NCBI GenBank assembly: GCA_963700285.1
Contig: CAVOXA010000010.1
Coordinates: 1,760,001-1,824,000, forward strand
Length of the DNA stretch: 64,000 bases
DNA from: an uncultured Chloroflexia bacterium
GTDB lineage: Bacteria > Chloroflexota > Anaerolineae > JAAYZQ01
Reading direction: 5' to 3'
Shown: piece by piece, positions 52,134 to 63,161 of the stretch
Position numbering within the stretch: the stretch's first letter is position 1
How the letters are laid out: the number at the start of each line of letters is the position of its first letter
Notes under the pieces: generated by a model
The model's database searches: none
Told to the model about the DNA's origin: nothing
Seen by the model: the letters and a program-made list of their open reading frames with translations, nothing else
Program-made: the position numbers and the translations under genes

Positions 52134-53683
52134 GACACCGCCAGGTGTTCGTCCATGCCCGGGATGGGCAGCTCGATCTGGCCGCCGCCCGCCCCCTTGA
52201 ATCGGCAGTCCACCTCGCAGGCCAGGCACTCCACGCAACGGCCTTTCTTGGCCTCTTCACGGGTGATATTCAGCTCCGGCAGTCCCTCGTCGTTCAGCGA
52301 CAGGATCTGGCGGGCACATTCCTGGACGCAGACCTTGCTCTCGCAGGTCGCGCAGATGCTGTGGTCGTAGGTGATGGTTCCACCGGTGACCGTCTCAAAC
52401 TGGTAGAGACGCGGCTCGCCTATCCGCTCCGGGTACCGGCCGCTGCTTGGGCGTCACCAACTGGCCCTCGCGGATCAGCGCATCCAGGCGCTGGGCGCAG
52501 AAGTCGGGCGAGTCGTCCTTCCTGTAGCCCTCAACCGGCGCGGGCACCCAACCGTTGAGCCACTCCAGGATCTCGACAGCCTTGTCCTCGCTGTTGCCGC
52601 CCAGGCGGATCACCACCGGTACGTCGATCTGTTCTTCCAGAAAGGCCTTGACAAAGCCCCGCGCCGAGTGGAACTGTTCCTGGCTGGCCACGCCCGAGCC
52701 CGAACCAAAGTAACCGTCGACTGGGTCCGGAGGCCAGGACGATGCGGGCGGCGCGGTAGACTTTGCTGGCCGGTGGGTTGCCGCTGGTATCCACAAAGGT
52801 GGCCAGCTGGTAGCCCTGGCGCAGCACGGCATCCATGCTCATCATCGAGCCACCTCCGCCGGCGCCGTGAAAGCCGACATAGCCGTCGCCCTTCTCAAAG
52901 CCCTCGGCCATCTGGATAAAGTAGAAGGTGCCGCGATAGTCGTTGGCCTCGACGTCGTAGGCGATCTTTTCCAGAGCGGTGGGCGGGCGGTCGTATTCGC
53001 GGGCGATGCCGATGCCCAGGTCCTTGTGGCGGAAGACGCCATAGTCATCCACCGTGATGCGGCAGTCGGCGGCCATCAGGCTGCCGTCGGTCAGTTGCAC
53101 CAGGGGGTTGATCTCGGCCGCGCGGGCGTCGTACTCTTGTGCCACCTGGAAGAGGTTCATCAGCACGCCGCCCAGTCTGCAGTTGCAGCTTGCCGCCGAT
53201 GCCGGTCCGGCGCACCAGGTCCCGCGCCTGGAAATCCAGCAGCCCGGTGCCGACGTCGACGTGCATCCGCGCCACCCGGTCGGGGTGCTCCACGGCGATC
53301 TCTTCGATGCCGGTGCCCCCCACGCTGGAAAAGATGATCAGCGGCTGCTGGGCGGCGTCATCGATGATGACCCCGGCGTAGAACTCGCGGGCGATCTCGA
53401 CCCGCTGCTCGACCAGCACCTCCTGCACGACAAAGTTCTTGACCTTCATGCCCAGCATGTGCCGGGCTGCTTCCTCGGCCTGGGCCGGGTTGCTGGCCTT
53501 TTTGATGCCCCCCAGCCCGGCGCGGCCCGTGACCCAGGCCTGGGCCTTGACCATGACCTCGCCGCCGAGTTCCTCAGCGATCTGGCAGGCTTCCTCCGGG
53601 GTGCGGGCTACGCCCCCCTTGGGAATCGGGATCTTGAACTGCTTGAGCAGTTCCTTGCCTTGGTACTCGTGTAATCGTGCCAT
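52130..53683 (-). CDS. SucC-like ATP-grasp CoA ligase beta subunit with C-terminal ferredoxin-like domain, frameshifted
   Basis: RLHEYQGKELL, VKAQ..GRA..GG, EINPL, GAGGGGSM, RLGGN; C-terminal C..C....C...C and CVECLACEVDC. Confidence 0.85.
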
Positions 53684-53816
53684 GTTTCCCTCCAACTTGC
53701 CGGATTGCTACGCAATTGGATACGAGGCTTGATTGTCAGGCATTCACTAGTCGTAGCTGTCATGACTGTTCGTCAAACGCAATGCGTCGGCCGTCAAACA
53801 TCAGTCGTCCGTGTCC

Positions 53817-54588: not shown

Positions 54589-55694
54589 TCACGATAAACC
54601 ATACTCGACGTTCAGGTCGGCACTGATCTGCTTCAGGCTGGCCTCGACCTTGGCCTCCAGCGGGATGCCATGCTCGGCGCGGCGGTCGGCCTCTTCGAAT
54701 TCTTTCTCGCCGTGGACATAGATGCGTTCCGCGCCCTCGGCCAGGTTGCCGCCCTTCAGTTCGCGGATCATGGCGTCCATGTCGGCCTTGAAGTCATCCG
54801 CTGCCCGGAAGGCATCGATGCGCCAGGCGCCGAAAGAAGTGGCCCAGGTCGGCAGGCAGTGCTTTGCCAGCGCCGTCCTTGGGATAGACTGAGGTCAGGA
54901 AGGCGGCGCCGGGCAGAACCGCCGAGAGGATCTCGACCATAAGGCCCATGCCGTAGCCCTTGTAGCCGCTGAACTCCTCGCCGGCGCCGCCCAGGGGCAG
55001 CAGGCCGCCGCCGGCGCGCCGGACAAAGTTGTCCAGGACCTGGCCCGCGTCTGGCCGTCGGCACCCCACGCTCGTCGGTGGCCCAGCCCAGGGGCATGGC
55101 TTTCTCCTGCCGGTGATAGACCTCCAGCTTGCCCCGGGGGACCGTGCTGGTGGCCATGTCCATGACGAAGGGGCGTTCTTCGCCGGCCGGCACGGCCAGG
55201 GCGATGGGGTTGGTGCCGTACATGGCATCGCGGCCAAAGGTGGGCACCACCAGGACAGCGGCGTTGGTGGTCGAGATGCCGATCATGTCCTCTTCCAGGG
55301 CCATCATGGCATAGTAGCCGGCGATGCCATAGTGGTTGCTGTTGCGCACGGTGGCAAACCCGCAGCCATACTCCCGGGCCTTTTCGATGACCATGGTCAT
55401 GGCCCGGTGGCTGACCGGCTGTCCCAGTCCCGCGCCGGCATCCAGGGTGACGGTGGTCGGCGTTTCGACGACGACCTTTTCTTCGGGCTGGGCGACCATA
55501 ACGCCGTCGCGCAGGCCATTCACATAGCGGGCCAGCCGGGCCACACCGTGCGAGTCGATGCCCCGCAGGTTGGCCTGGATCAGGACGTCGGCGGTGATCC
55601 GGGCATCCTCCGGGGACACACCCATCTTTTCAAAGACCCGGACGCAGTATGCCTGCAGCGCCTCCGGATGAACGATGCTGCTTATGTCTGCCAT
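54589..55694 (-). CDS. Ldh_2-family (malate/L-lactate-type) oxidoreductase, frameshifted
   Basis: GIDSHGV, NSNHYG, GTNPIA, DMATS, PLGG...YKGYG. Confidence 0.9.
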
Positions 55695-58262: not shown

Positions 58263-60155
58263 ATGTCTGGCAAGGTAGCATGGCTCGTCGTTCTGGCCGT
58301 GATTGCGTTGCTGCTGTCAGCCGCGGGTCATCCTGGGCACGCTGCTGTCCCGGTGCTGCCGGCAGACTCCGCGAGACCCAGCCCGGTTCGCCTATCGCCC
58401 GCCTGGACGCCAAAAATGAGCCCTCCCGAGCCGGTTACGGGCACCGGCCACGACGCCAGATGGCCCGACGTGGCCTACAACTCCACCTACAACCAGTACC
58501 TGGTCGTCTGGAAGGGGGGCAAGAGCATCTGGGGCCGGCGGGTGGACGGCCGCGGCAAGCCATGGGGAAACGTATTCGAAATCGCCAGCGGTCCTACCTC
58601 CGGCGACGGGCGCCCTCGGGTAGCCTTTGACACCCAGCGCAACCGCTACCTGGTAATCTGGGGCCGCGCCGATGGGCTGGCCTACCAGATGTACGGGCGT
58701 TTTGTTCCTTGGGACGGCCCCGACCCGGCGCTCGTCCCCTTTGCCATCGACCCTTCCAAGCCGGCGAGTACGCAGGTCTATGCCCTGGCCTATGGTTCCT
58801 CGCCAGACGAGTTCTTGGTCGTGTGGGTGAACAGAGATGCGGGCTCAACCCGGGATATGGTTGCCGGACGCCGGGTCAAAGCCGGCGGCGGCTTTCCCAT
58901 GGGCACTTTCGTGATCGCTGCCGGCAGCCTGGACAACCGGGGCAATCCCGACGTGGCCTACAACGCCCAGCGCAACCAATACCTGGTCGTCTACGACGAC
59001 TACCCCAAGGTAAACGAAAACATCTACGGCAAGCGGCTGTCGGCGACAGGTATCCCGATAGCCGGGGGCGAGTTTGCCATCGCTGACTGGCCTGGCGACG
59101 AAATCGACCCCGCCGTCGCCAGCTGCCCCGCCACGGACCAATACCTGGTCGCCTGGCACGGAATCCCAACGCCGGGGGATGGGGTCTGGGCTCGCTTCGT
59201 TTCCGGGCTTGGCGGGCTGGGCAGCATGGTAACCCTCGACGAATTCCCATGGTGGAGTTATCATTATCCCCTGGACCTGGCCTGCGGCGTGACAGAACTG
59301 GAAATGGAAGATCCACGCTACCTGGTCACCTGGAGCACAAGCTTCGACCTGGACGGGACCAGCTACGCCCGGGAGATACTGACCACCGGGTCGCAGAGCG
59401 ACGAGGTCCAGATTGACAGATGGACCGGGGCTATCGCCGTCGCAGGAGGCGCCATCAACCATCTGGTCGCTTGGGAAACCAGCGGGAGTGACTATGATGG
59501 CTATACAGATATCTACGCCCGCATCGTCGGCAATACCATACCCAAGGCATCCTTCACCGTCACCCCGGGAGACGCGCCTAGCACCACCGTCTTTGCCTTT
59601 GACGCTTCGGCCAGCAACGATGCCACCGACCCTCCGAGCCAACTCCAGGTACGCTGGGACTGGGGCGACGGCGACCACACCACCTGGAGCCGCGACCGGA
59701 CCGCCACCCACAAATTCCCCCTGGACCCTGGCTACATCCTGAACCTCTACAGGGTGGAGCTGGAGGTGACCGATGGGACCGGGCCCACTACGACAGACAC
59801 GACCTCCACAGTCGTACTGGTCCGCAATGCCCCGCCCACCGCCGCCTTCACCGTCCAACCCGCCACGGGCAACACGCTTACGACCTTCCACTTCGACGCC
59901 TCGGGCAGCGCCGACCCCGAGGGCGGCGCGCTGGAGGTACGCTGGGATTGGAACAACGACGGCGCCTACGACACTGCCTGGAGCGCGACCAAGATAGCAT
60001 CACATGCCTTTGGCCAGACCGGCATTCATATCATCCGTGCCCAGGTACGGGATCCCGTCCAACTGACCGGCGTAACGACCCGCAACGTGTACGTCAGCGA
60101 AGGGGGCGCCCCGTCGCGGGCCTACCTGCCCCTCATCTCCCGCAAACAACCCTAG
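58263..60155 (+). CDS. Secreted repeat protein with two PKD domains
   Basis: Signal peptide, PDVAYN...YLVVW repeats, FDAS.S.D..WDW PKD motifs, C-terminal YLPLISR. Confidence 0.85.
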   Translation: MSGKVAWLVVLAVIALLLSAAGHPGHAAVPVLPADSARPSPVRLSPAWTPKMSPPEPVTGTGHDARWPDVAYNSTYNQYLVVWKGGKSIWGRRVDGRGKPWGNVFEIASGPTSGDGRPRVAFDTQRNRYLVIWGRADGLAYQMYGRFVPWDGPDPALVPFAIDPSKPASTQVYALAYGSSPDEFLVVWVNRDAGSTRDMVAGRRVKAGGGFPMGTFVIAAGSLDNRGNPDVAYNAQRNQYLVVYDDYPKVNENIYGKRLSATGIPIAGGEFAIADWPGDEIDPAVASCPATDQYLVAWHGIPTPGDGVWARFVSGLGGLGSMVTLDEFPWWSYHYPLDLACGVTELEMEDPRYLVTWSTSFDLDGTSYAREILTTGSQSDEVQIDRWTGAIAVAGGAINHLVAWETSGSDYDGYTDIYARIVGNTIPKASFTVTPGDAPSTTVFAFDASASNDATDPPSQLQVRWDWGDGDHTTWSRDRTATHKFPLDPGYILNLYRVELEVTDGTGPTTTDTTSTVVLVRNAPPTAAFTVQPATGNTLTTFHFDASGSADPEGGALEVRWDWNNDGAYDTAWSATKIASHAFGQTGIHIIRAQVRDPVQLTGVTTRNVYVSEGGAPSRAYLPLISRKQP

Positions 60156-60407: not shown

Positions 60408-61208
60408 ATGGCCCCAACAGAACCGATTCGCGATCCAGAAAATGCCGAACATAGATCCCTACAACCCTACTTCCCCCAAGCGCAAGACCGTGTCCTCGAC
60501 ATCGGCTGCGGCGACGGCAGGCTGACCTGGCTCCTTGCCCGCACCGCCGCCCTCGCAGCCGGCATCGACATCGACCTGGACGAACTCCGAAAAGCGCCAG
60601 GCGCGCGCCTCGATGCAGTCTCCGCCGCAGTCTGCTTTCCAGCGGCATCCAGCGAAGCCATGCCCTTTGCCAGCCGCTCCTTCGACCTGGCCACCTTCAC
60701 TTGGTCCCTCTGATGAGTTCCCCCTGAGGGCATGGTCCATGCCCTGGCAGAGACCTGGCGTGTGCTCAAACCCGGAGGCAGGTTGATCGACCTCCGCCCC
60801 TATTCCTCAGGCTGGCCCCTCGAGGTCTTCACCCTGGACACACAGATCCTCGCCGGCCCCCTCGACGATTCTATCGGTATAGCCTTGGACATCGCCTCTA
60901 ACAACGCCATCCTGGAGGCCCTCCAAAACGGCTGGTTCCAGGCAGAAACCAAGACTACCTTCGAATACACCTACTACTGGCACACAGTCGACGACATGCA
61001 CGACTACCTACAAGAAAACTGGCAAAAGTCAGCGACCGTCCCCGAGCCCATCCTCTCCAAAGCCCGTCGCCTCGTCCAGTCTACCACCGAACCCACCCAG
61101 ATCCGCATCCGCAGGAGCATGACCCTAGCCAGCTACAGAAGCCCAGCGACCGCCACTAGCCGCCCGTATCCAGCCCCCGACCACATCCCCAGAAAGTCCT
61201 TCAGCTGA
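60408..61208 (+). CDS. Class I SAM-dependent methyltransferase with in-frame TGA-TGA (putative Sec-Sec)
   Basis: VLDIGCGDG ... FTWSL**VPPEGMVHALAETWRVLKPGG, all in one frame; SECIS-like hairpin downstream. Confidence 0.78.
60724..60750 (+). promoter_or_regulatory. Candidate bacterial SECIS element
   Basis: AGGGCATG-GTC-CATGCCCT perfect stem starting 10 nt after the second TGA. Confidence 0.65.
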
Positions 61209-61698: not shown

Positions 61699-62427
61699 TT
61701 GATGGATGGAATTGTCGGTTCCCTTCGGCTGGGATGGAATGCATTGCTCTTCAAAGAAGACGCCTATGAAGAGATGGCTGCATCCACCAGCCCGGTCGTC
61801 AAGGGACTCATCTTTATCGTCGTCGTAGGCGTGATAATCGCCATATGTGGCCTTGTCGGTACTGGCCTCGAGTGGGCCAGTATTCCGGATATGGGCGAGA
61901 TCCAGGACACGGTCTTTTTCTACATGAAACAAATGCCCTGGTGGGACATGCTTGCCCAGGAAGATCCCATGGCCCTGGCGCGATTCGAGGAGTGGTACCA
62001 ACGTGGCTGGGATATCTTTCCCCAGCTGTTCGGTGCCCCGAACATGGGTTCCGCGGCGCTTGGGATCATCACCGTCCCACTGGCTTTGCTCTTCCGCTGG
62101 TTGATCTATGGCCTGCTAGCCTATCTGTTCGCCCGCTGGCTGGGTGGATCCGGCAGCCTGAGCAAGACGTTGGGTGTACTGGCCCTGGCGGTCGCGCCCC
62201 AGGTGCTAAACGTGTTGACGATCATACCATTTTTGCAGGTGGGTAGTATTGTCGCTGTGTGGGGCGTCCTGTGCGCCTATTACGGCCTAAAGACTGCCCA
62301 CAACCTATCGTGGACGCGGGCCGCATGGGCTACGCTGCTGCCCTTCCTCCTGGTCGTGGTCGTATTGATCCTGATGGGATGCTTCGGTTCGGCCATTCTA
62401 GGTATGGCGCTAGGAGGTCAGTCATGA
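61699..62427 (+). CDS. Yip1-family membrane protein
   Basis: Five-TM pattern, LFARWLGGSG..LALAVAP. Confidence 0.75.
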   Translation: MMDGIVGSLRLGWNALLFKEDAYEEMAASTSPVVKGLIFIVVVGVIIAICGLVGTGLEWASIPDMGEIQDTVFFYMKQMPWWDMLAQEDPMALARFEEWYQRGWDIFPQLFGAPNMGSAALGIITVPLALLFRWLIYGLLAYLFARWLGGSGSLSKTLGVLALAVAPQVLNVLTIIPFLQVGSIVAVWGVLCAYYGLKTAHNLSWTRAAWATLLPFLLVVVVLILMGCFGSAILGMALGGQS

Positions 62428-63161
62428 GTGCGATGCTGAATACCCTGCTCCGGACGGTCATTTTGGACGACTCGGCCTACCAAGAGTGGCGCGAGCGTCC
62501 TAATCTCTTTCTGAGGGGCATTGTCCTGATCTCCATCGTCATACTCGTGGCCGGGCTCATCGTGTTTGCCGTGAACCTGGTGAATCTGGTTAGGGCACCA
62601 GATCTGGACCGGATAGAGGGGCAGATCCGGCAAGGATTCGAGATGTCGTCCCGGTTCAACCCTGCCATGCAGAATCTTCCGCCCGAAGTGCAGCAGATGA
62701 TGGACAGCATGATCGAAGTGATTGTCCCCATGGTCTCTGACCTCAGTCAGATCGAAGCCCCCTTGCCTCGAGGTATCAGTGGCCTATTCCAGGCGACAGG
62801 CGCGTATCTGAGCCGGGTCCTGGCCGCGCTGGGGGGGTGGTTGTTCTACGGCGTCCTGGTCCTGATCGCAGCCAACCTGCTAGGCGGATCGGCCAAGCTA
62901 CCGCACTTTCTGGGGATGGTGTCGTTGTATATCATCCCCGGGTTGCTGGCTGTGTTGCGCCCCGTCCCCTGTCTGGGTGGACTGCTGGCGCTGGTAGGTA
63001 CCATCTGGAGCATCGTGGTCTATATCAAGGCCGTGTCGGTTGCCACCGATCTGGACGCCGGCAGATCCATCCTGGCAGTGTTGGCGCCCTTCATCGTCAT
63101 GTTCCTGCTGGGCATTCTGCTGTCCGTCATGGGAGTCGCCTGGTTGGCAATCGTTCTCTAG
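62424..63161 (+). CDS. Yip1-family membrane protein (paralog)
   Basis: ATGA overlap with RBS GGAGG; IAANLLGG..IPGLL..WSIVVYIKAV. Confidence 0.75.
   Translation: MSAMLNTLLRTVILDDSAYQEWRERPNLFLRGIVLISIVILVAGLIVFAVNLVNLVRAPDLDRIEGQIRQGFEMSSRFNPAMQNLPPEVQQMMDSMIEVIVPMVSDLSQIEAPLPRGISGLFQATGAYLSRVLAALGGWLFYGVLVLIAANLLGGSAKLPHFLGMVSLYIIPGLLAVLRPVPCLGGLLALVGTIWSIVVYIKAVSVATDLDAGRSILAVLAPFIVMFLLGILLSVMGVAWLAIVL

Follow-up and report, generated by a model that had tools for sequence, protein, structure and literature searches.

Tandem UGA codons followed by a single SECIS-type hairpin in a bacterial class I methyltransferase gene: a family with predicted adjacent selenocysteines

In a stretch of 64,000 nucleotides from an uncultured Chloroflexia bacterium (contig CAVOXA010000010.1; hereafter the window, to which all plain positions refer), the forward strand carries at 60408-61208 a gene for a class I SAM-dependent methyltransferase, which is 266 amino acids long if two in-frame UGA codons are read as selenocysteine (Sec), an assignment that draws on the open reading frames, Pfam, an AlphaFold model and fold comparison. 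Its stop codon is also a TGA (61206-61208). The SAM-binding motif I, LDIGCGDG, occupies residues 30-37 of the translation (60495-60518, + strand) and is kept in the family alignments. The two in-frame UGA codons stand side by side at 60711-60716 (+ strand), with FTWSL before them and VPPEGMVHAL after them, and the states of the homologues together with an alignment to the methyltransferase RebM predict Sec102-Sec103 at this place, in a loop after strand beta-4. A hairpin of the bacterial SECIS type, with an 8-bp stem and a GUC loop, follows at 60727-60745 (+ strand) within the codons for (E)GMVHAL and is identified by its conservation and by the bSECIS criteria. In the list of open reading frames, the piece from 60732 to 61208 (+ strand) appears as a protein of 158 amino acids, which gene callers annotate separately and whose ATG lies inside the hairpin stem.

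The original prediction held that open reading frames of 101 and 158 amino acids share one frame, parted by TGA TGA, and that the two halves make up a single class I methyltransferase. Both points are borne out: the frame runs on through 60711-60716, and the Pfam Methyltransf_11 match, which covers residues 30-127 with an E-value of 1.8e-15, takes in the UGA-UGA site, PF08241 and PF13649 (Methyltransf_11/25) both lying above cut-off as a single domain across it. The evidence presented here comprises the frame, the hairpin and its covariation, the Sec machinery, the fold and the alternation of UU, UC, CU and CC forms, where U stands for TGA and C for a Cys codon. On this evidence we put at roughly 0.88 the probability that 60408-61208 is one gene of 266 codons in which both UGA would be decoded as Sec by way of a single hairpin, the pair lying in a predicted active-site loop. 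The recoding of UGA-UGA as Sec, as a claim by itself, is judged from sequence comparison to be highly probable.

The stem of eight base pairs with a GGUC apex is present just as had been claimed. Its arms (60727-60734 and 60738-60745) enclose a loop of three nucleotides, GUC, or GGUC with the closing G included; the folding energy is -16.6 kcal/mol, and the loop begins 21 nt past the first UGA (UGA1) and 18 nt past the second (UGA2). The bSECIS criteria, as given in the available text of PMC13188914, are a loop of 3-9 nt with G first, a stem of 4-16 bp, a spacing of 16-37 nt and a minimum free energy of -7.5 or below, and the four values just given fall within these ranges for both codons. Counted from the U of UGA, the first G of the loop lies at +24 for UGA1 and at +21 for UGA2. 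In the same genome, hairpins with a GGUC loop stand downstream of the Sec codons of two FdhA and two HdrA, with their first G at +22 and +31, and the spacing of UGA2 is one base under the shortest example seen in the genome.

By itself, the hairpin does not exceed what chance would give. Its folding energy as a single hairpin gave z-scores of -0.54, -0.61 and +0.63, and a stem at this offset, by a pattern derived from this very site, follows 82 of the 196,014 TGA triplets genome-wide. TGATGA followed by the stem was found once (the present site) among the 4,634 TGATGA of the genome, where about two were expected, which is again within chance. A scan of the locus for promoters and terminators gave nothing above shuffled sequences. 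The case therefore rests on comparison with homologues.

A search of 151 relatives with the single protein gave seven matches, each with two TGA; a profile search found the family in 23 of the 401 genomes sampled from the class and in 27 of the 401 sampled from the phylum, two samples that overlap. In 48 loci from 44 genomes the site reads TGA-TGA (36), TGA-TGY (11) or TGT-TGA (1); neither CC nor TAA or TAG was found at the site in these 48 loci, as placed by HMM alignment. In a metagenome scan that started from CC proteins, at least 521 relatives were confirmed among the 597 stretches listed; 80 of these were kept and 78 were parsed, L117 and L132 being dropped for a mismatch to the motif pattern. 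The 78 metagenome loci divide into 34 UU, 34 CU, 5 UC and 5 CC, proportions that depend on the query and on a site pattern that admitted only Cys or a stop. Over all 126 homologous loci the codon pair is TGA or Cys only (UU 70, CU 35, UC 16, CC 5). Homologues with Cys or TGA at both positions are what the original prediction had called for, with residues other than Cys and no hairpin named as the adverse outcome.

These counts bear directly on two trivial explanations, a sequencing error and a genome-wide reassignment of UGA. The same TGA-TGA recurs in 70 loci from separate assemblies, which speaks against error even though the present assembly does have indel errors; as to reassignment, one database homologue (P0131) has WW at the site, as if its UGA-UGA had been translated with a code in which UGA is Trp, but this gene's own stop codon is TGA, and a tRNA-Sec with the anticodon UCA is encoded in the genome. 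Both explanations are effectively refuted by TGA-TGA in the genome and metagenome loci, and we accord them next to no probability.

The way in which the family appears in protein databases can be read from the best 150 matches in a 50%-identity library, which comprise 43 site-spanning proteins, 101 C-terminal fragments and 6 N-terminal fragments. The site is CC in 34 of the 43, AC in two, HE in two and WW, YC, CY, GW and WN in one each; CC is thus absent from nine. An MVHA-like start is seen in 87 of the 101 C-terminal fragments among these best matches, and all six N-terminal fragments end exactly at WSL or WSF, from which it follows that gene callers split the genes of this family at the UGA. 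The family, for which at least 521 metagenome loci were found, is mis-annotated as a pair of hypothetical proteins.

A tree of 142 sequences was computed with FastTree and rooted at the midpoint, with the site masked and the residues encoded by the hairpin kept. The U and C states are interleaved on it, with at least 17 and at least 19 changes at the two positions and at least 28 changes of form, nine of them between any form with U and CC. As all four states are interleaved, gains and losses recur. Two copies of the family per genome were seen in G388 (contig C16), G185 (contig C7), G629 and G700; the copies in G388 and G185 lie about 5 kb or less apart, and those of G629 are one UU and one UC. 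In an orthologue of 82% identity (L009:4001-4739, genome G001) the frame shifts near residue 77, ahead of an intact TGA-TGA and hairpin, which is either an assembly error or the sign of a decaying copy.

It is the behaviour of the hairpin across these loci that lifts it above chance. At least six of the eight stem pairs, together with G[GU] at +25, are kept at the same offset in all 121 TGA-bearing loci, as against three or four of the eight pairs in each of the five CC loci, a control that comes entirely from one clade and in which the hairpin is kept in none. It is because the hairpin is present in 121 of 121 TGA loci and in 0 of 5 CC loci that we regard it as beyond chance. In the 48 genome loci, 91% of the stem cells are paired, compared with 21-60% in control windows slid along the same loci, and six of the eight pairs have changes on both sides. 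Such two-sided changes occur in 19 cells against 3.4 in shuffles, none of the 500 shuffles reaching as high, although kinship among the loci inflates these counts.

Silent positions in the stem also follow the pairing. The His codon after the ATG is CAT in 107 of 107 cases, whereas elsewhere in the same genes CAT accounts for 260 of 645; AGC is partnered by GCT in 9 of 9 and GGC by GCC in 98 of 99. The sole GTC in a stem pairs with CAC, and in G715 and L091 a compensatory change in the stem converts Ala to Thr. The MVHA peptide is missing in four full-length CC proteins. G-U wobble pairs are tolerated in the stem, as is expected of an RNA element. Conservation in the homologues with covariation was thus found, on a point where its failure was to count against the reading, and by this comparative evidence the hairpin behaves as a SECIS.

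The same observations weigh on the possibility that UGA-UGA is a true double stop in a split gene or pseudogene, the halves being made separately with re-initiation at the ATG at 60732 and the repeat serving as an operator or translational-coupling element. A GAGGG stretch does directly precede that ATG, and public databases keep the halves as separate proteins. The break nevertheless falls within the Rossmann core, the two codons swap with Cys codons only and never with TAA or TAG (48 genome loci), the spacer is constant at five codons and in frame, the ATG is buried in a stem that tolerates wobbles as RNA would, and that stem has disappeared from the Cys-Cys loci; we consider a double stop very improbable.

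On the accepted view, Sec insertion in bacteria requires the hairpin to lie at a fixed distance from its UGA. The offset of the hairpin is identical in UC, CU and UU genes, and therefore the longer spacing (UGA1) and the shorter spacing (UGA2) each occur alone, 16 and 35 times, respectively. The position shared by UC and CU genes makes a single SECIS for both codons the most likely arrangement in the UU genes. SelB on the hairpin would deliver Sec-tRNA to UGA1; once the ribosome had advanced by one codon, the hairpin would load a new SelB-Sec-tRNA complex, which would serve UGA2. It is unlikely, in our estimation, that only one UGA is Sec, with the other misread as Cys or Trp, or that most ribosomes stop and the products are truncated or mixed. 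In general, an in-frame SECIS is tied to its position and two insertions in a row would be expected to be inefficient, and the UC and CU forms are common enough (51 of 126 loci) that one Sec may suffice; but UU outnumbers every other form (70 of 126) and persists in several lineages, and each spacing is found alone in the CU and UC genes. If a single hairpin does serve both codons, one fixed element acts for codon 1 alone, for codon 2 alone or for both, which makes the spacing rule and the reloading of SelB directly testable and the family a template for engineering Sec-Sec pairs. The series CC, CU, UC and UU on one enzyme likewise offers a clean test of the contribution of selenium at each position.

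The presence of selA, selB, selC and selD, on which the original prediction was to stand or fall, was confirmed in the genome: selA (579 bits), selB (288 bits), selD (196 bits) and the tRNA-Sec gene selC (67.5 bits, anticodon UCA) all lie above cut-off, and selD has an in-frame TGA of its own. Frameshifts split selB (C10:2126954-2128870) and selD (C9:56688-57628) in the assembly. As other genes of the window look broken too and selB has no stop inside the match in five of the five relatives checked, these frameshifts are probably long-read indel errors. Two window genes that likewise change frame are those at 52531-53695 and 54768-55694, which we take to be a succinyl-CoA-ligase-type subunit and an Ldh_2-type dehydrogenase. 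Co-occurrence with selA barely discriminates, because the background already stands at 77-87%: the gene is found in 41 of 43 carriers of the family, in 219 of 251 genomes of the class and in 155 of 201 of the phylum. Other likely selenoproteins of the genome are two FdhA, two HdrA (with GGUC-loop hairpins) and SelD, and the VAGU site of an HdrA-linked VhuD/MvhD-like protein is also likely to hold Sec; the sites are C1:1379335, C1:67778, C7:68239, C10:849625, C22:53843 and C9:56688.

Neither this protein nor any of five other members of the family reaches the cut-off of an NCBIfam model. The suggestion in the original prediction that a double-U methyltransferase family may already be catalogued was right in that MduS (NF045649) exists, but the present protein does not belong to it: it scores 33.6 bits against a cut-off of 380, with the match confined to the generic Rossmann part. 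MduS has no match above cut-off anywhere in the genome, and three other members of the present family score 36.7-40.4 bits or nothing at E 1e-7. A class I methyltransferase domain and two Sec are common to both families, whereas the MduS model has 338 positions against 266 amino acids here and its Sec motif, in the available text of PMC13188914, is CxxU as opposed to WSLUU. Selenoproteins of the ArsM type share with this protein a class I methyltransferase domain with Sec and, possibly, metalloid chemistry; membership was rejected on scores of 25.3/263, 32.3/575, 34.5/510 and 40.2/460 (bits/cut-off) with the models compared (NF008823, NF041536, NF041537 and NF047649). The ArsM-type motif is given as UxxG in the same available text (PMC13188914), and no UxxG or CxxG stands before strand beta-1 in this protein, for which the ArsM-like protein P0038 was used as a proxy; P0038 has YCGVG before beta-1, outside the aligned region, and it is Asn-Leu that aligns with the UU. 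AhpD, DUF2284 and UXPK domains were likewise absent from this protein. Two database proteins labelled 'arsenite methyltransferase' (P0092 and P0104) are no guide, since neither has an NCBIfam match at E 1e-25, and the site of P0092 reads FHW.

With SelB/bSECIS genes of the FdhA/fdhF type the gene has in common an in-frame UGA, a G[GU]-apex hairpin with its loop 16-37 nt downstream of the codon, the presence of SelA, SelB, SelC and SelD and Cys homologues without the hairpin; the difference is that here two adjacent UGA share one hairpin. Eukaryotic SECIS elements, unlike the bacterial in-frame hairpin, are not tied to codon position. Consecutive Sec-Sec was reported as a first case, in the available text, for the algal PDI_e (GUGUU; PMC7539508), which resembles the present protein in its predicted adjacent Sec-Sec but is a eukaryotic thioredoxin-fold protein and not a bacterial methyltransferase. 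Neither the UU motif nor such a family appears in the table of 119 prokaryotic families in the available part of PMC13188914, and the word 'methyltransferase' does not occur in the main text of the deep-Sep report as available (PMC12013277). The literature searched, in its available parts, gave no example of adjacent, consecutive or tandem UGA or Sec in bacteria, and an earlier listing in supplements is possible. The methyltransferase family is apparently uncatalogued, and the present gene very probably encodes a Sec-Sec selenoprotein within the known SelB recoding system.

An AlphaFold2 model, built from an alignment of 17 rows with Cys in place of Sec, has a pLDDT of 87.9 and a pTM of 0.84 and sets residues 102-103 in the loop after beta-4. 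The fold is that of a class I methyltransferase, Rossmann-like with seven strands (Z up to 19.2 over 203 residues, with an rmsd of 5.9). The nearest structures are the small-molecule methyltransferases TleD, YcgJ, BH2331 and LahSb, at Z 18-19, and none stands out; Foldseek, VIA-align and the ESM Atlas returned generic class I methyltransferases only. RebM, AtmM and TleD are the best matches by sequence and fold among solved structures and share an SL-xx-M motif after beta-4, WSLUU aligning with ESLHH of RebM (His140-His141 in chain numbering) and AtmM and with ESLCH of TleD. The His pair of RebM is presumably its catalytic base. The identity to these enzymes is nonetheless only about 20%, they have His-His or Cys-His where the present family has Sec/Cys-Sec/Cys, and their substrates are not transferable. 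We predict that the Sec-Sec pair lies in the active-site loop, where it would bind and activate the methyl acceptor.

The occurrence of a vicinal Cys/Sec pair at the place of the RebM His pair suggests that a thiophilic acceptor may be bound at two points; the vicinal selenol/thiol pair would hold a metal(loid) (As, Sb, Te or Hg, for example) or an S/Se species beside the methyl group of SAM. As the class of substrate our leading guess, weakly inferred and put forward tentatively, is a chalcogen or a thiophilic metal(loid); nine of the 43 site-spanning library proteins lack CC and no arsenic or mercury operon context is conserved among the loci, both of which tell against it. Alternatively, Sec-Sec may be made but act in catalysis on an organic small molecule (O-, N- or S-methylation), whether as an acid/base or as a covalent methyl relay, or else serve as a vicinal-diselenide redox switch gating the active site, and not as a metalloid clamp. 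Taken together, these roles fall a little short of an even chance in our assessment: the Sec-Sec positions are those of the His pair of RebM and AtmM, the nearest structures are small-molecule enzymes and no metal-resistance neighbourhood is conserved, but no single structure stands out and in most members both positions are Cys/Sec over a divergence to about 30% identity, which suits a two-point site for a soft ligand. A wider and rather doubtful proposal would be that this is a widespread uncatalogued family in which SelB is brought in twice by one SECIS within the coding region to decode the adjacent UGA codons, and a vicinal di-selenol site methylates toxic metal(loid) or selenium species by a route unrelated to ArsM, with all four forms, CC, CU, UC and UU, on the same scaffold and hairpin.

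Clustering of the neighbourhoods of the 126 loci gave no shared operon, the largest real clusters being of 8-9 loci and bound to a lineage. In one lineage only, the methyltransferase adjoins yqeB (TIGR03309, 316 bits, above cut-off), which encodes a selenium-dependent molybdenum cofactor protein of the selenium-dependent molybdenum hydroxylase system. The eight loci concerned are L021-L025, L030, L137 and L140 (for example L024:2263-3147 and L023:2229-3044), and in five of them the methyltransferase is downstream of an XdhC-like gene. At the present locus, the upstream gene (58263-60155) encodes a protein of 630 amino acids that has a hydrophobic stretch at its N-terminus, PKD domains and, at the C-terminus, the tail YLPLI; the same gene is also upstream of the methyltransferase in the relative L009, with no sign of a functional link. 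Downstream, two consecutive genes for Yip1-domain membrane proteins occupy 61699-63161 and are followed, from 63347 onwards, by a gene that we take to be recA.
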